From: Jimgerdemannia flammicorona
Taxonomy: Eukaryota
Direction: 5' to 3'
Length of the DNA stretch: 40,588 nt
NCBI GenBank assembly: GCA_003990765.1
Contig: RBNJ01000119.1
Coordinates: 1 to 40,588 of the forward strand
Of the stretch, positions 1,661 to 39,900 are shown one piece after another (the stretch's first letter is position 1; the number at the start of each line of letters is the position of its first letter). The notes beneath the pieces are model-generated. The model was not told the DNA's origin. It saw nothing but the letters and a program-made list of their open reading frames with translations, and searched no databases. The translations under genes and the position numbers were made by a program.

Positions 1661-1711
1661 AAAAGATAGCCTTTGTCTTAATAATAGATCAGATTGTCTT
1701 CAATAATATAT

Positions 1712-2150
1712 TATAATAGTGATATCAGAATAGTGACATCATCACAGAAGACAGCCTTTCCTTATAAGCCACCAGATTGGAGCATAAGAAGATTATACAG
1801 CATGACTTACCCAGGCTATAAGATGAGTAATAATGACCAACCATGAGTCATTGTGACCACAAGACAGACAACTTAAGGAATATAAAAGAAGGACTAAGGA
1901 ACTGTAGCGGCAGCAACTCAAAAAAGACTCACAAATCCAAAAATAGTTCAAAGACTCATCTACTGCTGTGAAATGGAAACAAGAATCACCATTGCTACTG
2001 AATACCTCTGGATGTGGCAGGAATATGAAATAGGAAACCTTCTCTGCTGGGAATTCCCTCGGGCCAGTCCCCAAGAGATACAAGATGCTACCCCCATAGA
2101 TGCATATAAAATAAGGACAGTGAAGAAGATTCATCAGATCTTCAGGTATG
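1712..2150 (+). repeat. Truncated, internally deleted family A LTR fragment
   Basis: Colinear with 25576-~26182 and 32807-~33383 (tataatagtgatatcagaatagtgacatc...gatcttcaggtatgc). Lacks about 160 bp at ~1960. Confidence 0.85.
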
Positions 2151-12085: not shown

Positions 12086-12102
12086 TGGGTGGAGCAGTTT
12101 TT

Positions 12103-12185
12103 GTAAGAGTTAGACAATCTTTCATGAGGGTTAGGCAATCTTTTGTGAGGGTTAGGCAATCTTTTGTGAGGGTTAGGCAGCCATT
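12103..12185 (+). repeat. 20/21-bp tandem repeat (tgtgagggttaggcaatcttt)
   Basis: About 4 copies directly after the cargo gene stop codon. Confidence 0.75.
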
Positions 12186-12436
12186 TTGTGCAGGCTGGGT
12201 AGTCTTATGTGGGGGGGTTGGACCAGGCACCTCTTCTATAGTACTAGCTTAGCCATTATATAGGGCCCTACCAGCCCCTCAGTCCTGCTCTGTAGTGCTA
12301 CCAGTACAGTGCTATGGCATAGGGCTGGGGTGCTCATAGGACCCAAACTGGTAACTTTGACTACTAGAAATACCCTCCAATTGCCAGAAATGCCCTCTGA
12401 CTGCCAGAAGCACCCTCTACCCTGGACTTCTTGGTA

Positions 12437-12895
12437 GCTTGGGGCTGCCCCTATGCTGCTGGTGGAGGGCTGTAAATTTTGCATGCTCCCTCTGCCTGCC
12501 CTGCCTGTCCCAGACACTTGTGGCTTAGAGCTGCCCTTTGCTGCTGGCAGAGAGCTGCAAATTTTGCACACTCCCTCTACCAACCCCATGCCCACCATCC
12601 CCACCAACCAACCCTGTCCACTGACCTGGGTGCTGACAGCTTGGGGCTGCCCCTCACTGCTGGTGGAGGGCTATAAATTTTGTATGCTCCCTCTGCCTAC
12701 CCCCCCCCTGCCAACCCCCCCGACCCAGATACTTGCAGCTTGGGGCTGCTCCTTACTGCTGGCAGAGGGCTGCAAATTTTGCATGCTCCCTCCACCGACC
12801 CTGCACCCACCCACTGACTCAGGCACTGGTAGCTTGAGACTGCCTCTTGCTACTGGCTGAGGGCTATAAATATTGCATGCTCCCTCCACTGCCAC
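12437..12895. repeat. Five ~55-bp hairpin-containing direct repeats between the convergent cargo gene and transposase
   Basis: Core gcttggggctgccc...ctgctgg(t/c)(g/a)gagggctg(c/t)aaattttgcatgctccctc(t/c) repeated with C-rich spacers. Confidence 0.75.
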
Positions 12896-13001
12896 TGCCA
12901 ACCCCACTCTACTTGGGCCACAAACTCCAGACCAAGTCCTCAGGTTTTTTTTCCCTTTTTATTATTTTTGAAAGGTATTAAATATTCCACAAGGCTGAAT
13001 T

Positions 13002-15560
13002 TTAGCAGCCTGAGCCCCACCAAGACTTCAGACACATATATGTCTAGATTGTCTCAGTATTCAGTACACACCTCTTTGGGGCAACAAGGTCTACCCCACC
13101 TGAGAACACCTGCTCAATGGGAGCACTGGAGGCAGGAATTGCCAGGTAGTCCCAAACTATATCACACAGGCTGGAGAAGTCTGTTTGATGTAGCTGCATA
13201 CCCCAGTGGATAGAGTGATAGTTAGATTGGTGGGTTAAATTGGCCCAACATCTGCCTGACAACCTACCTTCCACCAGTTGAGCACCTCTGTGCCCTCCAG
13301 AAGGACCACGCAGTCACTGGCAAGATAAATAGTAAGTTCGTTTATTGATGGCAGCTCTTCCACTGACAGCTCTCTCTTCTTCTTTCTGCTGAAGTAAATG
13401 TGGGATAGGAGGGATCTCTTGACATATTCATCTGGACTTTGGCCAGAACCTTGCAGCAGCACATAGTTTTTCCAGTACACTTTGATTATGGCCTGCTTAG
13501 TTCTCTCAATGAAGTGCTGCTCCCAGTCCTGATCTTTATGGTATTGTAGCTTTAAGTGTGGGTCCAGCACTGTTCGAAAAAAAGGAGAGTGAGTTTTTGT
13601 AGGTTTCTTCTATTTTGGAAGAGATAATGGCCACATGCCGACATCGATATACCTATACTGATTGAGTATATAGTGGTATCTGTTTGGGAGTAATATTTTC
13701 TGAGCTTGCTTAGAGCAACCTCTATGGCATCTCTCTGATCTAGGCTTAACTGTAAATAACTGCAACCCTCCAGCCTATCCTCAAGCTTGTCCTCTAGCTG
13801 GTCAATCAGAAGGTTGTATACTAGTATTGCAGAGCTTATTGTCAAGATATTTGTTTGACTATATCCTTCATACAATCATTGAAATACTGGCAGTTATATG
13901 TGGTGAGGTGTTGCATTATGCAGAGGCAGACAAAACAAGTGTAGAGTCAGAGCAACCACCACTTACTTCCAAAACTCTGACAATATTCCTAAGTATATCC
14001 CACTCACTTTCACCTGGAGCCTTAGCCCATATTTCCTTGTCAGCAGCCACCATTGAATCTATTGGCTTTTTTTGTTTTTTTTTTTTTTTAAAAATAAATC
14101 TTCCATCATCCAAAACAAGTTGCTTTAGCTGACTGAAGAAAAAAAGAATACATACCACAGCAAACTTCAGCACACACTGTATCATTGCAAATGTTGAGTT
14201 CCAATACATACAGACATCCAATATAAGCTCTTTTGGGGCTAAACTGATTGCCCTATACTGTGCAGCAAATTTGTCTCATTGTTGTGAGGACAATCAGACT
14301 GACACAACCAGTTTGCACAGCTTGGAAATTATACTCAGGGCCCCTCCTCTTTTGGATGTTTTGTCTATATGCATAAGATAATCCTGAACAGCAAGGTTCA
14401 GTACATAGGCCTGGCATTGTACACAGCAGCTTTCTGTACTGAAGACTATGTTTTTCTGTTTGAGGCTGGCCACTAAAACTTGGAAAAATGTTGAGTTGTT
14501 TGTAGCATTGTCTGTCGTAATGGTCAAAATCTATACTTGAAATATTCAGTCAGCAAATTATGTGAAAATAAATAACCAATAAAATCTGTTTTGTTTAAGG
14601 ACCTCTCTCATGCTGACCTGATGGCAAGCCCCCCTTTTTTTATCTTAGTTGTGATCCCAAGCTCCCAGATACAACTAATAAAAGCATCTGTAATGTTGTC
14701 TCTAGAATGAGGGCCAGCAAGTTTGATGAAGTCAAGGGTGAGAGATTTAAGCTGTCAATCAAGGTCAATCCAATGACTGGTAATGCTCAGAAACAAAATT
14801 GCATTGGGAGATGTCCATGTGTCAATCATAAATGAAATTTTGCCTGCCAAATTCTGCTTATTGAATATAAGGTTAAATTGGTGAGCTCTTTTATATAATT
14901 CAGCTTGCAAAGGTCATGGTGCTGCCCTTATTTTACCTGAAGTATCTGGCAGAGATTGTTGTGCTCCTTTCTATAGGCCTCCAGGACATCTTTGTGAATA
15001 GTATCAGTACTTAGCAAATATAAATCATACTTGAGGAGGCCAAAGATGCTATGCAATTGATCACTCTCAATGGTTGTGAATAGCTAGTCTGTGTATACAA
15101 TTCAGCAAATGAGCTGATTTTGAAATTCTGCCAAAGAGTATGGCTAAATATTTTTGATTAAATGGCATTATTGGTATAGAAATGGTCAGACAATTGGATA
15201 AATGTACCCACCACAGCTTGGATGTCAATTTTATTTATCTCCATGATCTTTTTGATTTTGTCAGAGTGCTTGTCTTTTATGTGTCGATTCATATTCGAAG
15301 TCATACCACCAAGTATTTTGAACTTCTGGCTGGTGCAGTTTATGGGGGTAGATGAAACAATATTATATGTGTATCAATTAAGTCAACAGGTGCATCTTAA
15401 TTTTTTACCTGCAATAATTACAAACAACATCATCTTCTATCTTAGCATAATGTTACCAGATTTCAGAGTAAGGATTGCGTGAAAGGTATGGAACTATCAG
15501 AGATGTTTGACTTGAAGCATCATCAGTACTGTGAACTGTTGAAGACTGATCTGTCGACAT
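13002..15560 (-). pseudogene. Intron-containing hAT transposase with N-terminal BED zinc finger and C-terminal dimerisation domain (degenerate)
   Basis: SEIW*HY..VVCNYC...GGMTSNMNRHIKDKH (BED); ISFMIDTWTS..FLSITSHWID; ITTDNATNN; CQAYVLNLAVQ (from CxAHxLNL); WNSTFAMI; LDPHLK; DYLAIPASSAPIEQVFS; MCLKSWW. Confidence 0.88.
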
Positions 15561-17378: not shown

Positions 17379-19260
17379 TCAGTCTCGAAAATCTTTTATC
17401 CGATACTTGATTCCTTCATATATGGTCACGGCAGGGTGAGATGGCTTCAGATAGTTCCGTAATTGATTCCATTGATTGAAAGGGCACCGGTATGATCTTT
17501 TTGATTTAAATGCAAGGTTAAATATCACCATGCTTAATACGTTTGCCGTAATCTAAATTGAGGCTTTTTTTTCACAATAAGTAGATCGGTCGTTGTGGCA
17601 GGAGTAGAAAGACCATGCATATGGCCCGATGGACATGTAATTATCAAAACGTGTGAATTCCTCTCCAACGAGCCCAATCTCACAGACGCCGTGGGTGGAT
17701 TCAACGACAATGTCCCATTCGCATATATCGTTCTGAAACATCGCTCGGGGTGGAAGTTCTACAACCTAGCCATCCTCCGAAACGACTACTTGAGAACCAA
17801 TTTTCGGTCTATCCCACTGGAGACATTGTGATGTGCATTATGGCGACTTGCGGAAGGGTGACTCGTACGGCATACGGTGTTCTTGCAGGCGTGATGTCAA
17901 AGCGAGCAAACATGTCGACTGCCTCCGCAAGGGTCTTGAGTCGATGCGGGCAGATGAGCGTGAGGTCAAAGTGGGTCATCATTTTGAGCAGCAAGGCGCG
18001 TGACGCACCATCTCCTAACCGGACCGTAACATCGCATCCCGCAACCATATCGCTGATGTCTTGCAAAGCAGAATGGATATCTCCCTTTTATTTTCATTTA
18101 ATTTGATAGGTTATATGTTGTGTCTGGCTATCTGCCTTGATGATTATATCTCCCTTTTATTTTCATTTTATTTGATGGGTTATATTTCATGTCTGGCTAT
18201 CTGCCTTGATGATTATATCTCCCTTTTGTTATTTTATTTGATGGGTTATATGTCATGTCTGGCTATCTGCCTTGATGATTATATCTCCCTTTTATTTTCA
18301 TTTTATTGATGGGTTATTTTCATGTCTGGCTATCTGCCTTGGCAATTCTACCCTTTATTTATTTATTCTTATAGGTTATATGTCATGTCTGGCTATCTGT
18401 CTCAACAATTATATTCCCTTTTATTTTCATTGTATTTGATGGGTTATATTTTATATCTGCCTTGATGATTATATCTCCCTTTTATTTTATTTTATTTGAT
18501 GGGTTATATGTTGTATCTAGCTATCTGCCTTGATGATTATATCTCCCTTTTAGGTTCCGAAACCGACGGCGCGTTCTCGTTGCGTCCCCAGACCCAGTCG
18601 ACGACGCACAGCAACAGATCGTGCTCGGAGGTGGAAAGGGTCCCTGCCTCGGTAAGGAGCAGCTCGAGGGACTCTTCGGAGAGATCGGTGAGCTCACCGT
18701 TGGCGAGCTTGTGAGCGCAAAAAGGGTCGAGGAGCGCGTCATAGAGGTCCTTGTTGGTTTCGCTCCAAGGTATGGCGGAGACAGCTTCTTTAAGAAGCGA
18801 TGAAGCGACACCAAAATCCGCGAGATCGTGCGCGCGTTCCAACACCATCCTCATGAGCTTCGGGAGGAGGAGAAAGCAGTGTATATATTTCTACCGCGAC
18901 GGAAATTTTGACAGTGTTATCGATAATTTCGGTGTGAATGAACCCGAGGATAATGTTAAATACCGCGGAGGTAATGTCGTTGAGGACGATGCGATGATAA
19001 GAAGCCTCGCGCACGTTACCGTACAGCATCGCTTTGAAGACTGGGCATCTTTTCACAGACCATATGAAATGAGACGCGAGAAAAGTGCATGCAAACGCGA
19101 CTAAACTGTAATTGAACAAACCTTGAAGCAAGTACGGCACGGCATGCGCTTAGCTCGACACCGTCGGCGCAAATGATGGTTACATCATGTTAGGTTGGAT
19201 CTTCCAGATGGAGGCGATGTCATCCCTGAGACTGTGAACACAATTGGATTGCTCGACTGT
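17379..19260 (-). pseudogene. BTB/POZ-BACK-SPRY pseudogene, tandem paralogue of 20342-21845
   Basis: Colinear with the intact copy and has the same intron position. Start codon lost (atg to aca at ~19258), frameshifts near 19200 and 18890, and a 476-bp minisatellite inserted in exon 2. Confidence 0.85.
18077..18552. repeat. Minisatellite, ~69-bp unit, ~7 copies, inserted into the BTB pseudogene
   Basis: Unit atatctcccttttattttcattttatttgatgggttatatgtcatgtctggctatctgccttgatgatt. Copies start at 18077, 18146, 18215 and 18281. Coding homology resumes on both sides. Confidence 0.9.
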
Positions 19261-20341: not shown

Positions 20342-21845
20342 TCATCGACTATCCTTTATACGATACTTGCATTGTGGATATAAGGAAACAGCAGGGTACA
20401 CGTTATCGGGGAGATTACACCAGGCTATCCCGTAATTGATTCCATTTATCGAAACGGCACAGGTGTGGTTATTTAGGTTTAAATGAAAGGTTATGACATC
20501 ACCATTTTCAATAATTTTACCGTATTTTGAATTGAGTAAGTTTAGTTCACCGTAAGTAAATCGGCTTTGGTTATAGGAGTAAAAAGCCCATGCATATCGT
20601 CGGCATAACATGTCACTGTCAAAACTTGCGAATTCCTCTCCAACGAGCCCAATCATGCAGATGCCGGTGTCGCCATGCGATCCAATGGATTCAACGACGA
20701 TGTCCCATTCGCATAGACCGTTGTGAGCCTTCGTTCCGGGAACGCAAAGCCGTGCTGTGTGTGGCGAAACCTCCGATGGAAGCTCCACAACCTTGCCATC
20801 TTCTGAAACGATCACTTTAGTACCGATTTTCGATCGATCCCACTGGAGAACCTCTCTGCGACTTGCTGATGGATGACCCTTAGGACATCTGGTGATCTTC
20901 CAGACAGAACGGCAAACCGCCATGTAGTGTGGAGACTTCGCAAAGGTGTCGACTGCCTTTGCGAGAGTCTTGAGTCGGTGCGGGCAAATAAGAGTGAGGT
21001 CAAAGTAGTTCATCATTTGGAGTAGCAAGGTGCGCGACGCGCTATCACCTAGCCGCACCATGCCGTCGTGCCCCGAAACCATATCATTAATGTCATGCAG
21101 AACAACATGGCGCTCCGAAGCCGATGGCGCGTTCTTGTTGCGTCCCCAAACCCAGTCAACGACGCACAGCAACAGATCGTGCTCGGGTGTGGAAAGGGTC
21201 GCTGCCTCCGCGAGGAGCAACTCGAGGGCCTCTTCAGAGAGGTCGGTCAGCTCGCCGATGACAAGTTTACGAGCGCGGAAGGGTTTGAGCAGCACATCGT
21301 AGAGGTCCTTGCTGGTTTCGCTCCACGGTATGGCGGCAACAGCTTCATTTAAAAGCAATAAATCAACACCAAAATCAGCGAGGTCGTGCGCGCGCTCCAG
21401 CACCATTTTCATAAGTTTGGGAAGGAGGAGAAAGCTTGCTGCGCGGTATATTCCTACCGCCACGTAAATGTTGACGGTGCTGTCGATGGTTTCGGTGTAA
21501 ATGAACCCGAGGACAATGTTAAGCACCGCGGAGGTGATGTCGTTGAAGACGACTCGATGAGACGAAGCCTCTCGCATGTTTCCGTACAGCATCGCCTTGA
21601 AGACCGGGCATCTTTTAAGAGACCACATGAAATCAGGTGTTTGGAAAGTACAAAAACAACGAACACAACTAAACTGTGCAAAACCGAAAACGGACAAACC
21701 TTGAAGCCAATATGGCACGACATGCACCCAGCTCGACACCGTCAGCGCAGACGATGGTCACATCGTGGTAGGTTGGGTCTTTCCAGATGGAGGCGATGTC
21801 GTCCGTGAGGCTAAGACCGCCATCAAATTGCTCGACCATGTTCAT
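20342..21845 (-). CDS. BTB/POZ-BACK-SPRY(B30.2) domain protein (~471 aa); exons 21845-21700 and 21611-20342
   Basis: Exon 1 MNMVEQF...WKDPTYHDVTIVCADGVELGACRAILAS, then an 88-bp GT-AG intron, then RCPVFKAMLYGNMRE..IVLGFIYT (BTB). BACK-like EHDLLLCVVDW. SPRY: WDIVVE..IGLV..GDVITFHLNL..CAVSING..YGIAW.NLP..VYPAVSL. Confidence 0.88.
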
Positions 21846-25575: not shown

Positions 25576-27123
25576 TATAACAGTGATCTCAGAATAGTGA
25601 CATCATTATAGGAGACAGTCTTTTACTATAAGCCACCAGATCAGAGTACAAGAAAATTATATGATATAACTCACCCAGGCTATAAGATGAGCAATGGTGA
25701 CCAACCATAAGTTATTATAACTATAAAATAGATATCTCAAGGAATATAAAAGAAGGACCAAGGAACTACAGTAGCAGCAACTCAAACAAGACTTACAAAA
25801 CTTCAAAATATATAGCTTAAAGACTCACTATAAATGAAATGCCTGCTGCCTGCCAAATCTCAAGATCCAGGAATCACCAAGAATTCTCAGTCTAAGAAAG
25901 AATATTCTAAGATATCAGAAGAGCTATAAGGACTTACACCAGAAGGACTCCTAGCCTCAACCTGAGTACTAGTGACTCTTATCACTTTATTCTCAACTGC
26001 TATGAAATGGAAATAAGAATTACTATCACTACTGAATGCCTCTGGATATAGTAAGAATATGAAATAGAAAACCTCCTCTGCCAGAAATTCCCTCAGACCA
26101 GTTTCTAGGAGATACAAGATACCACTCTCATAGATGTATGTAAATAAGAACAGCCAAGAAGATTCATCAGATCTTCAGGTATGTATTATAGTTGATTCCC
26201 AACTTTGAATATACTAGAGTCTCAGACTTCAAGGAATTGTCAGTCTGCTATACAAATGCACTAAAAGCCATGGTTGCCACAGAAGTCTAATCTACTATCA
26301 CTCTCAATAGTAATGAGATAGAAGAGTTCTGGCATCTCATTCTCCAGAACAATCCAGACCAATTTCTGCAAGGATTGATCTTAGCATTCCAAGGTCCCAG
26401 TATCTAGATTAGATCTCCCTAAGACCCCACATTTGTTCCTTATTTTATAGAAGAGAATATCATAGATTAGAGAGCCCCTAATCTCCTTGCTCTCTCTACC
26501 ACTGCCAAATATGATGATATCATCAGCAATGATATCATCCTACTAACTGGCAACATATATGAAGTGTATGAAGTATGTAAAATAGATGAAATATTCATAG
26601 ATCTCATTTTCTTCAAAGATATTCTGATCTCTAGTAGTAATGAAGATGAGCCCCCAGGGTCCTGAACATTCTGCTCTAAGTTCTTTATATAACTATTATT
26701 CTTTTGGCATTCTGATCTTGTATAACTCAGAAATTCTTCTGACATCCTTTTTTTGTATTACCAAAATCTACTAGTATCCTGAACTTATGCAACCATTTGT
26801 ACAGGCACTCAAATTTATACTTACAACTGAAGTTTTCTATATTCCAGTATTTTATTTGGTTATTGAAATTTATATTTTATATAAATACCTCTTGAAATAA
26901 AGTCAGTCCCCTTAGTTCTCTCAGTTCACTTATACTTAATTCCACACAAGCAATCTAAGAGATATATAACAAGATAGTTTAAAGATAAGAAGTTTGAGAA
27001 CTATAAGACCTTGAGAAGGTACTCCAATAAGAACTTGATTATAACAAACTTATAGTTAGTCTAAGAGATATATCTTGAAGAGAATCTAATATAATTGAAG
27101 AACTCAGTGCCTACTATATGATA
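25576..27123 (+). repeat. Family A 5' LTR (1548 bp)
   Basis: tataacagtg...ctactatatgata (mutated TG...CA), homologous end to end with 32807-34360. Confidence 0.85.
25839..26665 (+). pseudogene. LTR-encoded ORF (~275 codons), 5' LTR copy
   Basis: ATG MPAACQ... through ...DEPPGS-TGA. One 1-nt deletion (~26145) and transition stops. Homologous to 33101-33868 and 1973-2150. Confidence 0.6.
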
Positions 27124-27199
27124 ACTTGGTACTTATTGGCTGGTGATTTAAGACAAATTCCTCACTTTCAAGCTAAAAAAATAAACAACTACCACAACA

Positions 27200-30100
27200 A
27201 CTACCCTGACTACAAGAGTTACCTCCTGTAAGAATTCAAGACAAGATAGAAATATATCCCTCTACATTTTATGGATTTATTACTAAAGAGTCTATTCTGA
27301 CCTTTATTGAAGACTTTGAACAATTTGCTATCATACAAGCTCTCAATATAGATGTACAATTGGCCCTTCTATCAGTCAGCCTCAGAGGATCTATCAGAGA
27401 TAAGTTCAATGCAGCCACTATTGCTAATGCTAATGCAGCCAAACTTGCCAATATAAAGAACTTCCTTAGAACTATATACTATACTGAAGAGATCAAGCAA
27501 GCTCTCAAGAATCAATTCAATACTATCTGTCAGGTACTCAGTAAAGATTCCAACTCATTCTATACCCAAATCTGCTACTATATTGTCTTGGCTGGCTATG
27601 ATGATACCCTTAAGGAATAAATGGCTGATTCAATCTTCCTAAAAGAAGTTCACTCTGAAATCACTCTAGCAATCTGGTCTATTCCAACTGCTCTGACTCT
27701 TGACCAGAAAATAGTCTTTATACAAAGATACTGGACTATTAGACACCCTGCCAAACACTTAATAAAAAGAATAACTGGCATCAAGATAGAGTCACTAAAG
27801 CTAACTAGTATCATACTCACTACAACTATCAATAGACAACTATCTCTATCTATCCTCCACAAGGCCAAAACTGACCCAGTGGAGAAACTTACCCAGCAGT
27901 TTGCCAAGATGACTATATATCTTGGTGATGTTGTCAGAGAAGTATGAAGTACCAACAGGAGACCAGTGCAGAAGTTTGCAGCTACTATAGAGGAATGTAC
28001 TATTATATACTTCAAATGTGGAAAAGAAGGCCACTATGCAAAGAGTTGTATGACTTAAACAAGGTACAGAGCTCAACCAAGTAATGCTACCAGAACCAGA
28101 GAGCAAACCAATACAGTAGTCATCAAGGAGATTAGTGATACTAATGATGAAAAATACTATGAGGAGTCCAAATTCTACTCTGTTACTGAACCCAGTTTAA
28201 GCTCTATGATAAGAAGAGCAATAGCAAGCTAGTTGAAAGACCAAAGATAACTCCAGCTATCACTATTCAAAGCAAGACCCAATCTGAGGAGATTGACCAA
28301 GACATGGAGTTAGATGAAGCTGTCTGCTAAATTATTGAAGACACTACTCCAGTCTTAGGAGAAAGCAAAAGCAAGAAAGAACAGAAGCTATATAAGACCA
28401 AGATCCATCAGTATGATATCTACAAATATTTTAAGGAATAGAAGATCAATGCTACTTTTAGACAATTAGCAGAAGTCCCTACCTTCAGATAGCAGTTGAG
28501 AGTAGAACTTACTACTACTGTTAAGAACTAAGAGTATAAGATCATAGAAGTTCACAATGCATAAGAAGATGAATAAGAAGACTTAGGTGAAGAATCTAAA
28601 GATCAATACAAGACCTCAGCTTATACTCAATGCCAGATTGAAGATTGTATCTTTGATGCTATTATTAATACTGGTGCTGGAGGATATCTTATAAATAAGA
28701 AGGCAATTGACTGCCTAGGCTGAGATATTGAAGAATCTACCAAAATAGTCTATGTCATAGCAGATAGTATACAAGCTACCCAATCTAAGAAGTCTCTATT
28801 AAGATTAGAGAAGCTATCATCCCAGTAGATATAATTGTTACAAGCACTACCAACTATGATATCCTCATTAGTAATCAATGACTTTACAAGGCCAAGGCTA
28901 TTATTGACCTCAATGCCCAGAAAATGCAGATCAACTATAGAGGAAGAAAGGTATGAGTCTCTATCAATGTCCACAAAGGAGTACTATCAGATATAGAGAA
29001 ATAAGATGAAGAGGATATAGAAGTCTTCATGCACTTGGTGTACAAGAACAAGAGCAAGACAACCAAGCTCATAGATGAGCAGTAGTACAACAAGATCATC
29101 AATAGCTATGCTCCTCAAGGAAGATACCCCCATAGTGCTAAAATGTACTGCTCTGAACATCTGAATGACTGCTGGTCCTGTATCAGCAAGTCAGAAAAAT
29201 CTGTCAACAAAGGTATGAGTAAGAAGCTGCTGAAGCAAAAAAGAAAGTTGAAGAAAATGACCAGCCTCCAGATCTTCAAGCTGATAGTGATGATGAGGAG
29301 AAACAAAAACCAGACATCATTCTTAAGGTCAAAAAGTTTCACCCTAAAGCTAAGATCCCAGAATACAAGACTAAAGAAGCTATAGGAATAGACCTTGCCA
29401 GCATCCAAGATGCTATCCTTGAACCATAGACCACTACTCTACTTAGCACTGGAATTGGAGTCAAGTTTCCAGAGAACAATGCTGGAATTATCAAGACCAG
29501 GAGCAGTCTGGCTAAGAGCAAAATCTCAGTTGAAGGAGGAGTCATTGACTCTGATTATACTGGTGAAATCTTTCTTATTGTCAGGAATTACAACCCCACT
29601 ACCCCATTTGAAGTCAAGAAGTATGATAGAATTGACCAGATGTTGATCTATGAAGTCAAGAAGCCTAAGATCACTGAAGCCATTGAACTCATCAAGACTA
29701 AGAGAGAAGAACAAGACTTTGGATCTACTAGAAGAGGAGCCTATACTGCCACCAAGATTATCAAACTCAAGCACAAGAAAGACAAGGATCAGAACAAGTA
29801 CACATATACCATTGGAGAAAACTTTCCCCTAGAAGAACAACTTCTCAAGATCTTGCACCAGAATAAAGATGTACTTGCCACAGACTTCAGGAACATCCAC
29901 AATCAAGAATTCAAGTACTATTATAAAGTTGACACTAGTGATACTAAGTCCATCTACCAGAAAGCCAGACCTATACCACCTGCCTATAGAGAATAGCTGT
30001 GAGCAGAACTCAAGAAAATAGAAGAAGCTGATATCATCAAGCAAGCTATTAGCCCCTGGGCTTCACCCATTGTCCTTACCCCAAAGAAAGAAAGTAAGTC

Positions 30101-32442
30101 TGGAGAATTTGCCCCAAGACTCTGTAATGACTACAGAAAGCTCAATGCAATTACCAAGAAGGATAGGCAGCTCTTACCAAATATTCAAGAAATCCTTACC
30201 ACTCTTGGAAGTAAAGCCAAATACTACACTACCTTGGATCTGTTCTCAGGCTTCCATCAGATTGGTCTCACTTAAAATGCCAGTGAGAAATCAGCCTTCA
30301 TCATATCTGATGCCACCTATATCTACCTGCAAATGCCATTTGGAATGTGCAATGCTCTAGTAAGTTTTCAGTGAATGATGAACAGAGTTTTTAGTAATGA
30401 GATTGGAAAATGGCTCTTTGTCTATATTGATAATGTGATCATCTTCAGTAATACTACACAAGAATATATCAACCACATACAGCTATCCCTCAAGAAGCTC
30501 AAGGAGTATGGCCTCTACATCAAGCCTAAGAAATGTAAGTTTATAGCCCAGGAAATTGCCTACCTAGAACACCTCATCAACCAGACCAGAATCCACATAG
30601 ACCCTATGAAGATTGAGGCTATTGTAGCCTACCCAAGACTCAGAATAACTATAGAGGTCTATGCCTTCCTTGGACTGGCCTCCTACTACAGAAGATTCAT
30701 CAAAGAATACTCTAACATTGCAGCACCTATCTACAAGCTACTGAAGAAAGAGACCAAATTTGAATAGACTAAAGAATACCAAGAAACCTTCAATGAACTC
30801 AAGATCAGATTGACCCAAGCACCTATCCTCAGAAGACCAGATTGGAACCTAGAGTTCATCCTGCAGACAGATGCAAGCACTATAGGACTTGGAGCAGTCC
30901 TAGCTCAGAAAAAATATGGACATAAATATATCATCTCCTATGTAAGCCAAGGTACCCATAGAGCAGAACAGAACTATGAGTCATGCAAGCTCAAATGCTT
31001 AGCAGTAGTTTGGACTGTAGACAAGTTCCACTACTACCTAGCTGGGAAATACTTCACTATTCCAACAGACCATTCTGCTCTTGCCTGGCTATTCCACACT
31101 CTGAACCCTAAAGGAATATATACCAGATAGATCTACAGGCTGCAAGAGTATGACTGTACTGTCAAGTACTGCTCAGAAAGAACCAACACCAATACTGATG
31201 CACTCTCAAGGATACCTCGAAACACCTCTATCAAAACTATTCAACATAAATAAGAAGTTATACTATGGATTAATCAGCTATCTTGGGCAGCAGAAGATGC
31301 TCAACCACCTTAAACCCTGGATAATCACCATCATCAACCAGACTTAGAAATAGTTTGAACTAGACAACACCATACTCAGAAAAGGAGGAAAGCTCATAAT
31401 ACCCAAATATAAGAAGTATCAAGTAATGAAGGAAGTATATGAATAAGGACATCTAGGAGAAACCAATATATATGACAAGGTAAGAAGAACCATATGGTGG
31501 CCCAAAATGGAAGAAGACCTGCACCAATTTGTCAAAGAGTATAATAAGTGCCAAAAACAGAAATAAGATCAGCAAGACCAGACACCCAAGTCATCAAGAA
31601 TTGAGCCTATCCCCTTCCACCACATTGCAATAGATATAATTGGGCCACTACTAGTAACACTATCAGGAAACCACTATATTATAGTTATTGTAGACCTCTT
31701 TACCAAATAGATAGAAGCAGGAGTATTATAAGAAGCCAATACTCTCTCTATAGTCAACTTCCTATACTGAGAAATCATCTGCCACTACAAGACACCAAAG
31801 CAAATCACAACAGACTATAGCACAGAATTTGTCAATAGATTCTATAAGATAATGTATCAGAAATACAAGATTCAGTATATCAAGACCACTGCATATCACC
31901 CTCAAGGAAATGGACAGACAGAGAGAACCAATAAGACCCTTAAGAATATCCTGATGAAGATCTCAGACACATATGAGAATTGAGATAACTACCTCTCAAC
32001 TGCTCTCTCTGTCCTATGAGATATACAGTCACAGAGCACACACTTTATTCCAAGAGAACTGCTCTTTGGAGAAAAAGATTCTGATGGAACCTCAGCCACA
32101 AATCTAGACCTAACTTGGAGATAGGTTGATGCAGAAATCCAGAGACTATACTAAATCAGGAAGAAGGCTAAAGATTATATTACCAAGTTACAAGCACTAA
32201 TAAGGAAGAATGCAGAAAAGAATTACATGACCCTAGAACTCATCCAAATTGGAGAAAAGGTCCTACTGTATCAAAATATGGTAGAAGTCTCATGGTCATA
32301 AAAACTAGAGTCCAAATGAGAAGGACCCTTCTACATGCAAGATATCAAAAGAACTACCTTCTGGCTTAGAAAAATCTCAGGGACTATACTGTCTACCATG
32401 GTATATAGAAACAGACTCAAGAAGTACTATAAACCTATATAA
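27200..32442 (+). pseudogene. Family A gag-pol polyprotein (degenerate)
   Basis: Zinc knuckle YFKCGKEGHYAKSC (~28008). Protease AIINTGAG (from DTG, ~28660). RT SPWASPIVL..DYRKLN..LDLFSGFHQI..MPFGMCNA..YIDNVII. RNase H LQTDAS..GLGAVL..TDHSAL. Integrase TTAYHPQGNGQTERTN. Start approximate. Confidence 0.9.
29316..29735 (+). pseudogene. dUTPase domain of family A pol
   Basis: All five trimeric dUTPase motifs are recognisable: AIGIDL, TRSSLA, GGVIDSDYTGEI, IDQMLI, REEQDFGST. Confidence 0.88.
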
Positions 32443-32806
32443 GAGAAGCAAAACATGATGACTGCCTATGAGGTTCTAGTCTGTGAATTGTAACAGCATG
32501 TCCCATGACCAGTAGACTATCTGTCTGGACCATTCTCTAAGGAATATGGTACCAGCAACTACTCATCTGTGAGACTTTTAAAGCCAGAGGAGTTCAAACT
32601 ATCAACTGATTGGTTAAGATCAGAATCAGGCCCTTGCTCTATATGAAGGGAGTGACTTTTCACCATCATGCCAAAATATATAGGGAAGATGCTAACCTAT
32701 AAACACCACTTTTCAACCCCTTGTCAGGGGTTATGGAATCAGCAAATTTTTCAGGACTGGACCAATGAATAAGGACATTCAAGAAGATCCTTATTCAGGA
32801 GGAAGA

Positions 32807-34360
32807 TATAATGGTGATCCTAGAATGATGACATCAGTACAGGGGACAGTCTTTCCTTGCAAGCCACCAGATCAGAGCACAAGAAGATCATATAGCATAC
32901 AAGATGAGAATGATGACCAACTGTAAGTCATTGTGACCATAGTATGGGTATCTCGAGGAATATAAAAGAAGGATCAAGAAACTACAGTAGCAGCAACCAA
33001 CAAGACCCACCAATCCCAAAATAGCTCAAAGACTTACTATAAATGAAATACCTGCTGCTCACCAAACCTCAAGGTCTAAGGTACCTCAGTTGAAGAAAGG
33101 ATGTTTCAAGACATCAGAAGAGTCATAAGAACCTGCTCAAGAAGGACTCCTAGTGTCAACCTGGGTACTAGTGACCCTTATTATTATATCCTCTACTGCT
33201 GTAAAATAGAAACAAGAATCACTATTGCTACTGAATACCTCTAAATATGGCAGGAGTACGAAATAGGAAACTTCCTCTACCAGGAGTTCCCACAGGCCAG
33301 CCCTCAAGAGTTACAAGATACTACTCCCATAGATATATATGAGATAAGAACAGCTAAGAAGATTCACTAGATCTTCAGGCATGCACCATGGTTGATCCCC
33401 AACTTAGAGTATGTTGGAGTCTCAGATTTCAGAGATCTATCAGCCCACCATATCAATGCACTAGAAGCCAGAGTGGCTACAGAAGCCCAGTCCACTATCA
33501 CCCTCAATAGTGATGAAGTAGAAGACTTCTGACATCCCATCCTCCAGGACAACCCAGACCAATTCCTGCAAGAATTGATCTCAGTATTCTAAGGCCCAAG
33601 CATCTAGGTTAGATCTCCCCAAGACCTCACATTTGTTCCCTATTTCATGGAAGAGAACTTTATAGACTGGAGAGCTCCAGATCTCTTTGTTTCCATCACT
33701 GCTGAACATGATGATGTCATTGGCAATGATGTCATCCTGTGTGACATATATGAAATATATAATCTATGTGACAAGATGGACAAGACATTCATGGATCTCA
33801 TCTCCTTCAAAGTCATCCTGACCTCAGATGAGGATGAAGCCTCTATGGTCTTGAAAATTCTACTCTAAGTTCCTTAGTTATACTGAATTATGCCAGTACT
33901 CTTTTCCTGTGTAACAGCTGTTCTACCACTGGTATTCTTATGTGATACTGAATTATTTCAGCACCATTTTCCTATATCACTGAAATTATACCAATATCCT
34001 GATCCTGTGCAATTATCTGTACTGACCCTGGAACTTAGTAGTTTTCCATATCCTAGCATTTTATTTTAGTTATTGGAATTTATATTTAGCTTTATATCTT
34101 AGTAACCATTAAATTATATTTTGTATAAATACCTCTCTTATTTCCTCTAAAATAAAGTCAGTCAAGTTCACTTATATATACTTCCTTGCAAGCAATCTTA
34201 GAGATAATAAGATAGTTTAAAGATAAGAAGTTTGAGGACTATAAGACCTTGGAAAGGCACTCCAATAAGAACTTGCTTATAACAAACTTGAATTAGTCTA
34301 AGAGATATATCTTGAAGAGAATCTGGCATATTTGAAGGACTCAGCGACTACTATGTGACA
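32807..34360 (+). repeat. Family A 3' LTR (1554 bp)
   Basis: Begins directly after the PPT (tataatggtg) and ends ctatgtgaca. Confidence 0.88.
33101..33868 (+). pseudogene. LTR-encoded ORF, 3' LTR copy
   Basis: One 256-codon frame, MFQDIRR...WQEYEIGNFL...YEIRTAKKIH*IFRHAPWLIPNLEYVGVSDFRDL...FIDWRAPDL..., with five internal stops, all of transition type. Confidence 0.65.
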
Positions 34361-36944
34361 ATAGTAGAACTTTGATCTTACCTTTGAATTCTTGGTCTAT
34401 AACTCCTCCAGCTATATAAAGTCTCTTTTTCTCGGCCAGACTACTCCTTTCTACAAGGCAGATATAGATTTCTTTAGAGACTTCTATTCTAATATCTATA
34501 CTAATAATTGCTTGCTTATCTGGTTCAATGGTTACTTCTATACTAGAGTAGAGATCATAGCCAGTATCAGATTCATATACTTTGTCTGGGATCTTTATAG
34601 TGATGTAGAATCTCTTAATTTTAATTTTCTCAGAGATTTCTTTGGGATTATCTCTTATTATAGTGATGGTATGTGAGAAGGATGGTCCTTTATTCATATT
34701 GGTCTTCTTGTTGGGACATTTATGAGACATATGTCCTCTTTTTTTACAGTGAAAATATACTTCTTTCTTTATAAGCTCTTCTATTTTCTTATCAGATAGT
34801 TTCTTGAATCTACTTTATAATCTTAAGAACTCATTCTGGAGTTTGTACTTCTTCTCAGATTGATATTATTTGTCTCTTTTGTTATTGTTCTTATTGTCTC
34901 TTAACCTTTGAGCTATAAGGATGATATATGCTCTAGTGATAGCTTGTCCTAGATACTATTACTCATATGGGCAATCATAGGGTCATTCTTGTTCACAGAT
35001 TTTTTCTAATTATCATCCAGAGATGGCATCAAAGAAATAAGCAGCTCTGGTTCCATTTACAGTTTATTCTCATTAGCTATATTCTACTCTTATAGTTTTC
35101 AGAGGAGTTTCTAGTCTTATAGTAAATACTTTAAGATCTTCTTTTCTATCATTATAGAATTGCAGATTCTTAAGCTTGATTCTGACTTTGGTAATATAGG
35201 CAGAGCTACAGAACTACTGAATAATTAGCTTCTTTAGATCTACAGTAGCTGGGTAGACTTCATAGTTAGAGTGATTATCATCTCTTTCACTTATATCAAT
35301 TTCAGTATGGGTTTTCCAGATAAGAGAGTATACTGATAGATTATACCACTACTGGGCAGCTGTGTCTGTGAAGTATATGGTAATCTTCTCTACTTGTAAG
35401 TCTGCAATTATATAGAGATCTTCAATCTCATACATAGTATATATTGTTATTAAGAGTACTGTCTAAGTTCTGATTATTATTCCATTTATTGACATAGTAA
35501 TTGATATCAACTGGTTCTATGAATATTATTACTTGGTCTGCTTTGCCTTCAAATGAAATAAGATAGAGTTCTTTTGTAAGCTTATTTGTTTCAATATTAA
35601 GGTAAAGAGCTTAGATAAGTATAGCTACTTAGTTAGTCAATACTACTATCTTATCATATACTAAGATCATTCTGTTATCTCTATTGTCTATTTGGTAAGA
35701 TAGTTGGGGTTCTTCTTCTATTGTTATAGTGGGTCAATTATGGTTTAGAGTTGACTCTTCTATAATATCACTAAGGTGGGTGAGCCTATAGATTGATGAT
35801 TTTAATAAAGTAACTATTAGATCTACTGTGACTTTTCATAAGCTTGATGTTCTTGGTGGTAGTTCTGTGATAGTGCTGGGTCTACTAACATCAAGTTTAG
35901 GTGTCTCTTCAATTATCCTCCTAGGCCTGAATAATATAGTGAGGGCCTTGCTAGATCTGGTAGCTTGTAGTTCTTATTACTAAATTATTCTTATTTATAT
36001 ATAGAGAATTTGATAATAGAAGTAGAATTTCTTTTGATAAGTATAGTATCCCTTATAGTTCAAAAAGGCCTTGACTTTATAGTAGTAGTTATTAGAGAGG
36101 AGGTTTAGAAAATATTTTCTCACAGTCTTAATAGATTCTTATATATATTTTTTATAAAAGTAGCTACTGACTAGCTTGTTGAATTTCTCCCTAAGTTCAA
36201 AAGTATAGAGGACTTCTTTGTTGAGTATGAGGAAAGTGTTAAATACTTCTTAGATAGTTTCATTGTTGAGTTTATCAAACTCCTCTTAGCTGATATAAGT
36301 TTCAGTCAACTAGGTAATAATTCTGTTAAATTCTTCAGCTTAATTCTAGAGAGTATTCAGGGTAACAGTGCTTCTTAACTATTACATATCAACAATGTTG
36401 GTAATATTGATCAGTTCTGATTATCTGTAGTAGATTCTTGAAGAAAGATTACTCATAGATAGAGAGTAACTTCTACTACTACTAAATTATAATAAAACTA
36501 TATACTGATAGAATTAATATATTGTAGAGAGTCAAAGACAACTTTTGGCTCTAGTTCTAAGTTTTTGAGAAAGCACTGAGTTCCAATTACCTTTTGTAGC
36601 AAAGTCTATATATTAATTTTAGGTTCTTATACTAGTAGAAGTACTATACTTGTATTTCAAGTTGATCAGACTTAGAATTATTAACAAATAGAATCTAAGA
36701 GTTCTGTAATAAGAATACTACTTTATTCTTATATTTGAAAAAAGTGGAGCTAAGGTTTCAATATACTTAGTTCAGAGAATATTTATATATATTTTGAGAC
36801 TATAACTAAATATGATATACTGGATATATTTGTATATAGTTATACTACTTTAGATAACTATAACTGCTAGTCAGAAATTCTATAGAAATTTCTGTAGAAA
36901 TTTCCATAGAAATTTCCATTAGAATTTCCAGAGATTTGTAGACA
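34361..36944 (-). mobile_element. Family C Gypsy, minus-strand copy: 5' LTR (36488-36944), gag and dUTPase truncated at the family A LTR
   Basis: Reverse complement of 36962-~39480. ORF 34341-34730 contains GYDLYS..ERSSLA..AGGVIDQEFKGKIKVLL. Confidence 0.85.
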
Positions 36945-36961
36945 TATGTAATGATTCATTA

Positions 36962-39900
36962 TACCTATAAAAGTTACTAGAAATTTTAATGGAAATTTCT
37001 ATGAAAATTTCTATAGAAATTCCAACTTATAGATATAGTTATCCAAAGTAGTATAACTATATATAGATATATCCAGTATACTATATTTAGTTATAGTCTC
37101 AAATGTATATAAATACCCTCTATACTGAGTATACTGAAACCTCAGCTCTGCTTTCTCTAAATATAAGAATAAAGTAATATTCTTATTATCAGAATTCTCA
37201 GATCTGACTTGTTAATAATTCTGAGCCTAATTAACTTGAAATATAAGTACAGTACTTCTACTAGTATAAGAACCTGAAAGTAATACTTGGACTCTACTAT
37301 AACAGATAATTAGAACTCAATACTTCCTTAAGAGTACAGAACTTAGGACTAATAAACATTATTAATTATCTGTAATATATTAATTCTATTGATATATAGT
37401 TTTATTACAATTTGGTAGCAGCAGCAGTTACTCTCTATCTCTCTTAAGAGTCTATAGATAATCAGAATCAGTCAATATTGCAGCAATAGTCAAAAAGTAT
37501 CTTCATTCTAGATACTCTTCAGACTCAAGCTAAAGAATTTAATAGAATTATTACTAAGTAAACTGAAACCTATATCAGCTAAGAGGAGTTTGATAAACTC
37601 AACAATGAAATCATCTAAGAAGTATTCAATATTTTTCTTATACTCAATAAAGAAGACCCCTATACTCTTAAACTTAAAGAGGAATTTAACAAGCTAATCA
37701 GTAGTTACTTTTATAAAATATATATATGAAAATCTATTGAGACTACAAGTAAACCTTCTCTCAAATGATTGCTACTACAAAGTTAAGGCCTTTCTGAATC
37801 ATAAAGGATACTATACTTATTAAAAGAAATCTCACTTCTATTACTAAATTCTCTATATATAATTAAGAATAATTCAATAATAAGATCCTCAAGCTATTAG
37901 ATCTAGCAAGGCTCTCACTATATCATCTAGACCTAGGAGAATAATTGAAGAGATATCTTAACCTGATATTAGTAGTCTCAGTACTATCACAGAACTATCA
38001 TTAAGAATATCAAGTTTATCAAAAATCATAGCAGATCTAATAGTTATTTCATCAAAACCACTAGTCTACAGACTTATTTAACTCAGTGATATTATAGAAA
38101 AGTCAACTCCAAACTATGAATGATACACCATAACAATAGAAGAAGATTCTCAACTATCTCACCAAATAGATAACAGAGATAGTAGAATGATATCAGTAGA
38201 TAACAAAATAGTAGCATTGGTTAACCAAGTAGCTATACTCACTCAAGCTCTTCACCTTAGTATTGAAACTAACAAATTCACAAAAGACCTCTACTTTACT
38301 CTATTTGAACAAAACAGATCATATAATAATATTTATAAAATAAGTTAATATTAATTATTATGCCAATGGGTAGAATAATAATCAGGACCCAAATAGCACT
38401 CTCAATATAATGAGTACTATGAGATTAAAGATCTTTATATAACTGCAGGCTCATAAGTAGAGAAGGTTGCTACATACTTTATAGACACAGCTGGCTAGTA
38501 GTGGCACAATCTATCAGTATACTCTCTTATCTAGGAAACCTATGATAAAATTAATACTATAAGTGAAAGAGATGATAACTACTCTAATTATGAAATCTAC
38601 TCTACTACTATGAGTCTAAAGGAACTAATCATCTAGCAGTTCTACAGCTCTGCTTATATTGTTAAAGCTACAACTAAGCTTAAGAACTCACAATTCTATA
38701 ATAATGAAAAAGAAGATCTTGAAGTATTTGCTATAAGACTAGAAACTCTCCTGAATATTATAGGAGCAGAATATAGTTAATGAGAATAGACTGTAAATAG
38801 AACCTGAGCTGTCTATTTCTTTAATGCTATCCCTAGATAGTTATTAAAAAAAATCAATAAATAAAGATAACTTTACAATTACTCATATAAGCAATAGTAC
38901 TTAGAACAAGCTATCACTAGAGAATATACCATCCTTATAGCCCAAAGATCAAGAGATAACAGAAATAATAATAAGGGAGATAAATGATATCAATTCAAAA
39001 AGAAGTTAAACCTTAGAATAAGTTCTCAAGATTATAAGATAGATTCAAGAAACTGTCTAATAAGGAAATAGAAGAAGGGAGTATGTTTCTATTGCAAAAA
39101 GAGAGGACATATGTTTTATGAATGTCTTGACAAGAAGACAAATATAAACAAAGGACCATTCTCCTCACACATTATCACTATGATAGAAGATGATCTCAAA
39201 GAAATCTCTGAGAAAATCAAGGTCAAGAGATTTCACATTACTGCAAAGCTCTCAGACAAAGTATATAAATCTAATACTGAGTATAATCTCTATACTAGCA
39301 TGGAAGTAACTATTAAATCAGACAAACAAGCAATCATTAGTACAGGTGTTAGAATAGAAGTCTCTAAAGAAACCTATATCTACCTTATAGAAAGGAGTAG
39401 TCTGATCAAAGAAGAGAGACTCTATATAGCTGGAGGAGTTATAGACTAAGAATTCAAAGGTTAAATTAAGGTCTTACTATATAATACTGGACAAAAGGCC
39501 ATTAAAATTATGTGTGGAAAATAAATTGCCCAAGCCATTATCAAGGTAATTATAATGATCTCAAAGTTGAAGAAATAAATAAACTGTCACTATCTGATAG
39601 AGGAGAAAATATCTTTAGATCAACAGAAAAGTACCCTGATAAGGCCAAGGAGAAGACTAAGATACAGAAGATTATCTACATTGAAGAACCTTAAGACTGA
39701 GATCAGAAATAATATTAGTATATTACTGATAGATATATCTCTATAGAACAATGCTCCCATAGAATCAAGATGTACTGTTTTGAATATATAAGAGAATATA
39801 TTACATATGTTCTTGAATCCAAGAAGTATAAGTCAACTATCCTAGAATGATGAGATGAAGAAATCAAGAATATCACATTGATTAGTGAACCAATACAATC

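Follow-up and report, generated by a model that had tools for sequence, protein, structure and literature searches.

Does a long terminal repeat (LTR) of a Ty3/Gypsy retrotransposon hold a protein-coding gene of its own? The question is raised by a 40,588-nt stretch of Jimgerdemannia flammicorona DNA (assembly GCA_003990765.1, contig RBNJ01000119.1, positions 1 to 40,588 of the forward strand; hereafter the window, meaning the whole stretch analyzed), in which a first-pass annotation made from the letters alone had noticed a long reading frame within the LTRs of a repeat designated family A. Retrotransposon LTRs pass for non-coding regulatory sequence and are masked by annotation pipelines, and a solo LTR is regarded as an inert scar. 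The evidence presented here suggests that the family A LTR probably holds a long-maintained accessory gene for an orphan protein, with its own conserved TATA motif upstream and its own AATAAA downstream.

The family A element and its LTRs

Self-comparison of the window by blastn recovers 25576-27124 and 32807-34361 as a pair of direct repeats (72.9% identity over 1618 aligned columns), which bears out the LTR length of 1.55 kb proposed in the first-pass annotation. The parts of the family present in the window are as follows.

25576..27124, + strand: 5' LTR of the family A Ty3/Gypsy element, direct repeat of 32807-34361
27125..32806, + strand: internal region of the element, interrupted by stops and frame changes (Pfam on X-read frames)
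32807..34361, + strand: 3' LTR of the family A Ty3/Gypsy element, direct repeat of 25576-27124
1706..2150, + strand: third family A LTR copy, internally deleted and truncated at 2150 (blastn blocks 1706-1958 and 1959-2150)

The internal region, whose frames were given to Pfam with X in place of stops, retains the order gag with a CCHC knuckle, dUTPase, reverse transcriptase (RT), RNase H, and integrase. Supporting matches are to dUTPase (E=1.2e-24), RVT_1 (8.8e-25; residues 993-1147), RT_RNaseH_2 (4.8e-29), RT_RNaseH (residues 1215-1342), and Integrase_H2C2 and rve (9.3e-13 and 1.1e-5; residues 1425-1592); the CCHC motif of gag was read directly in its translated frame, not via Pfam. A stretch resembling a primer-binding site (TGGTACTTATTGG, beginning TGG) lies 2-3 nt downstream of the 5' LTR, and the polypurine tract AGGAGGAAGA directly adjoins the 3' LTR. 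Family A is a Ty3/Gypsy element in a degraded state, with LTRs of 1.55 kb and a dUTPase.

The two full LTRs differ by 256 transitions and 73 transversions in a MAFFT alignment, and their difference in length is due in part to a tandem duplication of 59-65 nt at 33870-33993, directly 3' of the stop of the reading frame and found in the 3' LTR only. The third copy is 80-83% identical to the 5' LTR in its two blastn blocks and is without a counterpart of 25828-25992. A further piece of the element, at 1-147 of the window, matches the 3' internal end of family A (32290-32431; 71% identity, repeat family D9) and is separated by ~1.56 kb from the third LTR copy downstream, against 0.38 kb for the same interval in the full element; the piece therefore appears to belong to a second family A element with an insertion or rearrangement before its LTR.

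A reading frame common to the three LTR copies

25839..26679, + strand: open reading frame (ORF) of the LTR, 5' LTR copy; ATG kept, 10 in-frame stops, two 1-nt frameshifts, terminal TAA at 26677-26679
33048..33868, + strand: LTR ORF, 3' LTR copy; ATA for ATG, 10-nt deletion, 5 in-frame stops, terminal TAA at 33866-33868

That one frame is common to all three LTR copies, as had been observed, is borne out by the translations and by tblastn with P0002, a 271-aa environmental relative of the protein; the third copy keeps 65 ORF codons (1955-2149) with zero stops. The LTR boundaries, which the first-pass annotation had named as a check, enclose the ORF, with 263 nt before it and ~445 nt after it, and it lies wholly within the LTR in the 3' LTR too. 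When nine proteins of the family were used as tblastn queries, they matched solely the three family A LTR copies and no other repeat in the window.

The limits first drawn for the two longer copies each hold at one end. The 5' copy had been given as 25839-26665; the start stands, but the copy really ends with the TAA at 26677-26679. The tblastn match of P0002 falls into three frame segments because of two 1-nt frameshifts (near 26142 and near 26647-26650), the second of which accounts for the TGA at 26663-26665 at which the frame had been closed. For the 3' copy, given as 33101-33868, the end is correct and the ORF begins at 33048, with ATA in the place of ATG; 10 nt are missing after 33077, which puts the first 10 codons in another frame. 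Of the C-terminal indels, described earlier as whole codons, three are so (3, 6, and 3 nt), and one is a gap of 5 nt, explained as 6 nt minus the 1-nt frameshift.

The 3' copy is interrupted at 33242 (TAA), 33368 (TAG), 33530 (TGA), 33590 (TAA), and 33605 (TAG). Four of these five stops had been reported as sense codons in another copy, and the 5' copy indeed reads TGG, CAG, TGG, and CAA there. All three copies in the window are pseudogenes.

The open frame predates the LTR copies

Over the ORF stretch, in six frames, a count was made of the codon columns at which both full LTRs have a stop; a shared stop column marks a stop that predates the divergence of the LTRs or has arisen twice. The sense frame has shared stops in 1 of 273 codon columns, as compared with 62 of 1361 in the other five frames (11, 16, 5, 22, and 8; Fisher p=2e-4), and a comparison over the whole LTR gives the same picture. 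By this measure, the open frame is ancestral to the LTR copies.

Differences between the LTRs number 58, 40, and 83 at codon positions 1, 2, and 3 (chi-square p=4e-4), and the counts of sites at which at least one copy has G or C follow the same order (140, 106, and 159). Transitions per G/C site are even across the three positions (0.36, 0.34, and 0.43; p=0.22). Given this codon structure and the even rate of transitions per G/C site, we read the pattern as neutral post-insertion decay of formerly coding sequence, with no evidence of selection on the two copies themselves.

LTR divergence is dominated by CpA/TpG to TpA changes: C/T differences most often stand before A (71 of 145), and G/A differences most often after T (57 of 111). 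The ratio of observed to expected CpG is 0.00-0.33 in repeats and 0.01 in the family A element, against 1.13-1.19 in gene regions. These data suggest CpG-methylation decay together with a process resembling repeat-induced point mutation, acting on repeats only; the three LTR copies have decayed by the same C-to-T and G-to-A mutation that affects all repeats here.

Relatives of the LTR protein

A first search with the 3' copy, with X at its stops, returned four proteins (E from 1.5e-58 to 9.1e-108, 63-73% identity), and the copy is 67-73% identical to P0002 and P0001. An exhaustive profile search of 1.84 billion representatives recovered five clusters and, among those representatives, no longer, fused form of the protein; a word-indexed search with a family profile recovered 12 proteins. 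There are 17 protein identifiers in all, P0005 and P0006 being near-identical cluster mates, which leaves 15 distinct sequences. As read from the alignment, these fall into four lineages, 26-80% identical to P0002.

P0001-P0004, P0007, P0013, P0015: the window's own lineage, 63-80% identity to P0002
P0008, P0011: second lineage, 47-48% identity to P0002
P0009 (342 aa): third lineage, 42% identity to P0002
P0012 (325 aa), P0010, P0014, P0016: fourth lineage, 26-31% identity to P0002

Both ends of the protein are recognizable in the window. P0002 starts MPAARQTSRSRNHQ and the window reads MPAACQISRSRNHQ at the ATG at 25839, the same Met; an MP(A/P)xR start occupies this position in P0002, P0009, P0012, and P0008. 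The C-terminus is LNFLL* in P0002, and the window copies end in ...LNILL* and ...LKILL*. Blocks common across the lineages include WxEYEI, HQxFRHxPW, WNPxLxDNPDQxLQ, and F[QE]GPxI, and P0009 and P0012, the latter 31% identical to P0002, are full length. Because open frames and conserved blocks persist across four lineages at ~30-47% identity, a combination that DNA free of constraint would hardly yield, the protein was probably under long-term purifying selection and elsewhere probably still is, as far as protein comparison can tell. The earlier proposal of a conserved, selected LTR gene thus gains support from natural homologues with open frames (P0002, P0009, P0012).

Every relative is known from an environmental record of JGI or ENA, the contigs measuring 0.57-4.8 kb. 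Members of the family differ by substitutions of a kind expected from methylated DNA. CpG deamination turns CGN codons, which encode Arg, into codons for His, Cys, Trp, or Gln, and such replacements make up 14 of the 45 differences between P0014 and P0012 (over 175 positions); similarly, 8 of the 61 differences between the window copy and P0001 are Arg to Cys, His, or Gln. These substitutions, together with the low CpG ratio of the window's repeats, hint that the relatives behave like methylated repeats and hence are perhaps repeat-borne too.

At the DNA level, a search of public sequencing runs brought up one soil-metagenome run (contigs) that contains the element, with a share of 0.09, and no RNA run. 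This run, X1, yields 4683 short pieces at ≥80% likeness to the element, which were used for indel and variant hints only. They include single-nucleotide insertions at 26141 and at 26647, which are the sites of the 5' copy's two frameshifts; an insertion of 3 nt at 33077; and, in eight contigs, an in-frame (GAT)n run before 26649 that matches the poly-Asp tail of P0001. Scans of assembled contigs for the DNA of the relatives gave two candidates, both rejected: a metagenome hit (L001; 30% identity over 78 residues) taken as chance, on a contig that, judged from its ORFs by eye and without a family search, has no retroelement-like long ORFs, and a 15-residue match in a bacterial metagenome-assembled genome (L002), likewise treated as chance. 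A scan of viral contigs gave no match. P0001 fits the search patterns yet was not found in the scanned contig collection, and its contig is therefore not in that collection.

Signals and proposed gene layout

25745..25752, + strand: TATA-like motif TATAAAAG, 87 nt upstream of the ORF ATG; also at 32961 and 1881
26880..26901, + strand: second TATA-like motif TATAAATA (26880), then AATAAA (26896); 3' LTR counterparts at 34124 and 34151

The ORF had been placed just downstream of a TATA-like motif, and TATAAAAG is indeed found in that position in three of three copies. Farther downstream, TATAAATACCTCT at 26880/34124 is followed 16-27 nt on by AAATAAAGTCAGTC, and both are kept in the two full LTRs amid an indel-rich stretch. 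AATAAA occurs singly in each full LTR, downstream of the ORF and ~215 nt past its stop. The family A LTR would accordingly read as a complete intronless gene on the sense strand, comprising a TATA at 25745, an ATG at 25839, ~271-280 codons, a conserved stop that would close the gene after the ...LN(F/I)LL C-terminus, and an AATAAA at 26896.

If the LTR does hold such a gene, we lean slightly toward a layout in which the ORF, with its own promoter, lies in the unique 3' region (U3), the genomic RNA comes from the second TATA, and both transcripts use one AATAAA. The genomic RNA would then start downstream of the ORF, at 26880, where the motif suggests a promoter; the AATAAA at 26896, assigned in the same way, would serve as the common poly(A) signal just upstream of the genomic RNA start. 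Any LTR of the family, whether 5', 3', or solo, could then by itself express an mRNA of ~1.1 kb, and gag would not be placed behind a long upstream ORF. This layout is preferred because it needs neither a repeat (R) region of 1.1 kb nor a 271-codon ORF preceding gag.

It is unlikely, on balance, that the ORF lies in a very long R rather than in U3, an arrangement in which the genomic RNA would begin at the first TATA (25745), the ORF would be its first cistron, and transcripts ending at the AATAAA of the 5' LTR would be short, LTR-only mRNAs. Conservation of the first TATA in every copy, 87 nt before the ATG, and the position of the sole AATAAA of each full LTR downstream of the ORF are both consistent with this arrangement. 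However, it requires an R of ~1.1 kb and translation of gag behind a 271-codon upstream ORF and a stop-rich leader of >500 nt, and the second conserved TATAAATA, 16-27 nt before AATAAA, resembles a conventional start of genomic RNA.

The ORF ATG also overlaps an out-of-frame upstream ATG at 25834-25841 (ATGAAATG), whose frame runs for 31 codons in the 5' copy. This overlapping ATG might influence start-site choice if the mRNA starts upstream.

Host capture and chance as alternative origins

A gene in the LTR need not have been the element's own. A host mRNA may have been captured into the LTR of one Gypsy lineage and merely carried there, the homologues being ordinary host genes on which, rather than on the LTR copies, selection acts. 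The cassette does resemble an intronless retrocopy, with its TATA, ATG, stop, and AATAAA; the homologues, known from protein records, may lie in any genomic context; one stop is common to both LTRs; and transduction is discussed as a known origin of extra ORFs in the relevant passages of one review (PMC7264820). Against this, the homologues show the decay of repeats in the Arg replacements between P0012 and P0014 (14 of 45 differences), and many are partial ORFs on contigs of sub-kb to 1.6 kb, as collapsed repeats would be expected to give. Annotated genomes lack the family, all five of its clusters among 1.84 billion representatives being environmental. The window's lineage alone comprises eight distinct proteins (63-80% identical to P0002), suggesting many diverged copies, and run X1 contains 4683 fragments of the element family. 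We therefore regard host capture as improbable, and an accessory gene maintained by the element as the better account.

The suggestion that there is no gene, and that the open frame stems from T-poor, purine-rich composition and the choice of the best of six frames, fits an A-rich, T-poor + strand (AT skew +0.14 to +0.24), antisense frames with open stretches of 95-120 codons, and one antisense frame with only five shared stops in 273 codons, but it carries next to no weight given the 1 of 273 shared stops in the sense frame against 62 of 1361 elsewhere, and, to judge from the sequences, is already refuted by protein homologues at E down to ~1e-108 that include 29-47% identical members with the same motif blocks and start.

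Properties of the protein

Searches for known families and folds did not place the protein. The window protein matches 0 Pfam families at E≤0.01; at E≤1, P0002 still matches 0 families, and a chance-level match to ATG5_HBR (E=0.088) appears in two of nine members. The best hit of a PDB profile search is not significant (E=0.23), the nearest matches in the ESM Atlas (0.80-0.83) are at chance level, and Foldseek against PDB and BFVD returned none at E≤0.001, matches being in any case meaningless at the quality of the models used. Given no Pfam, PDB, or fold match, this is an orphan protein family, whose N-terminus is basic in most members, whose core is helical, and whose tail is acidic.

AlphaFold models consist mostly of helices to about residue 185, beyond which lie a small hairpin and a tail modeled with low confidence. 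Over the last 70 residues the net charge is -8 to -17 in all five proteins examined; this acidic tail, which includes the conserved hydrophobic patches DLIxF and LNF, is probably disordered. The net charge of residues 1-45 is +8 in P0002, +5 in P0012, +4 in P0001, +1 in P0009, and -1 in P0011, which is N-terminally truncated, and the N-terminus is Arg-rich in the window's own lineage. The acidic tail with its hydrophobic patches is reminiscent of activation regions or regions of short linear motifs. From this and the Arg-rich N-terminus, we tentatively raise the possibility that the protein might act in the nucleus as a regulator or adaptor of the element, a role that is doubtful at present.

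Two other identities for the ORF were considered and rejected. A diverged duplicate of gag was ruled out by an hhalign probability of 0.2% against the element's own gag, and a nested DNA transposon by the lack of terminal inverted repeats flanking the ORF cassette in either LTR.

Strength of the interpretation

Several observations weigh against the existence of a long-maintained LTR gene or against the features assigned to it. The fifth stop of the 3' copy, at 33605 (equivalent to 26405), is TAG in both LTRs, so that the ORF of the inserting element may already have been broken, unless the same CAG-type site mutated twice; the codon there is Gln in P0002, P0003, P0004, and P0007, and Arg in P0001. 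With three broken copies, the window says nothing on present-day function. At least 8 of the 15 relatives are partial, and all are known as protein records. Automatic ORF calls on short contigs favor open frames by ascertainment, though such ascertainment is unable to create conserved blocks at ~30-47% identity. If the genomic RNA started at the first TATA, the ORF would fall within a 1.1-kb R, ahead of gag. With respect to the protein itself, the two AlphaFold models, built with 9 and 14 sequences, are poor (mean predicted local distance difference test scores of 47.3 and 50.5), no fold or family match backs any function, and the basic N-terminus is not uniform across lineages, full-length P0009 reaching only +1.

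The wider picture may be stated at a strength just short of even: a fungal Ty3/Gypsy clade may long have carried a self-contained U3 gene, with promoter and poly(A) signal, for an undescribed regulatory family, which diversified together with its elements into at least four lineages; every LTR, solo LTRs included, would then be an expression unit.

Surroundings of the element in the window

Two ORFs near the element, at 34341-34814 (- strand) and 39072-39449 (+ strand), encode a CCHC knuckle and, after it, a dUTPase domain (Pfam E=1.7e-15 and 7.6e-6, respectively) and represent a different Gypsy family. As one of them starts at the end of the 3' LTR, family A was probably inserted into or beside an older element. 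The region 10000-14000 has a gene-like GC content (0.46), an observed-to-expected CpG ratio of 0.10, and short repeats at the peptide level (THMQP..., LPLP...); three ORFs tested there had no Pfam match, and the region is probably another methylated repeat.

A BTB-SPRY gene lies at 20342-21757 on the minus strand (Pfam BTB and SPRY), with a partial duplicate ~2.6-3.0 kb upstream (17566-19203 vs. 20541-21781; repeat families D3, D7, D8, D10, and D11, 76-83%). The duplicate also has a Pfam BTB match and contains a tandem array with a period of ~66 nt at 18086-18578. Only three relatives of the BTB-SPRY gene were found, at 40-46% identity and all from Logan assemblies, which points to a poorly sampled lineage. 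A GH18 chitinase-like gene at 6451-8019 (+ strand) consists of two ORFs separated by a 45-nt gap resembling a short intron, and encodes a Thr/Ser/Pro-rich linker and a Cys-rich C-terminal module without a Pfam name. The gap in this gene, the dUTPase of the Gypsy element, the confinement of CpG loss to repeats, and the soil origin of the one run containing the element all fit a probable fungal host.

Significance and comparison with known systems

A gene within the LTR would double its own dosage per element, would let solo LTRs last as coding units, and would give the element a protein without production of genomic RNA. The new family would be a candidate transposon regulator or counter-defense factor in a host whose repeats are heavily methylated and mutated, and the family alignment made here allows direct searches in fungal and soil data.

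Proteins encoded by LTRs are established in retroviruses, where sag of mouse mammary tumor virus (MMTV) lies in U3 and nef overlaps U3. Like the family A ORF, sag is a sense ORF of comparable size wholly inside a long LTR (>1.2 kb); if the second TATA is the family A promoter, the two would also share a long U3 containing the ORF and a very short R. The differences are substantial. There is no sequence relation between sag and the LTR protein (Pfam, 0 families), and no homology to Sag or to any described retroviral accessory protein was found by Pfam, PDB profile search, or Foldseek against BFVD and PDB. The family A protein is acidic and helical, without a transmembrane or secretory feature. 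The MMTV host is a mammal and that of family A a probable fungus, and family A, being a Ty3/Gypsy retrotransposon, has no env gene.

Additional ORFs (aORFs) of LTR retrotransposons offer a second comparison. The passages on aORFs in a review of plant elements describe them in Grande, RIRE2, and Retand, as env-like genes in Athila/Bagy2, and in Boty of Botrytis (PMC7264820). As described there, they resemble the family A ORF in being extra ORFs of unknown function, with no homologue outside elements, that are apparently conserved across copies (PMC7264820). Their place is within the internal part of the element, either ahead of gag or following pol and before the 3' LTR, and their orientation is often antisense (PMC7264820), whereas the family A ORF is inside the LTR itself and in sense orientation; a term search of the full text of that review returned no phrase placing an ORF in an LTR.

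Among fungal elements, the sections concerned of PMC2864245 describe dUTPase-containing Gypsy elements in Postia placenta (PosPlaTy3), Phanerochaete chrysosporium, and Tuber (Tmt1). PosPlaTy3 is a Ty3/Gypsy element with a dUTPase, located in one family between protease and RT (PMC2864245), and the dUTPase of family A likewise lies upstream of RT. A figure legend in the same article lists an "add. ORF", without known function, for some fungal elements (PMC2864245); the sections concerned state no ORF inside an LTR, the comparison being by description only. A non-exhaustive literature search, which took in the relevant parts of PMC10787394, PMC7264820, and PMC2864245 and had subscription journals outside its scope, did not turn up any fungal LTR retrotransposon described as having an ORF within its LTR.

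An extra protein of a Gypsy-type element with an assigned role is CERV of the Caenorhabditis elegans element Cer1, an accessory protein that, according to the portion of the source describing it, regulates export of the genomic RNA (PMC10309623); CERV serves here as a functional analogy only, with no similarity claimed. If the interpretation favored here is true, the family A gene would be a non-retroviral counterpart of LTR-encoded accessory genes such as MMTV sag.

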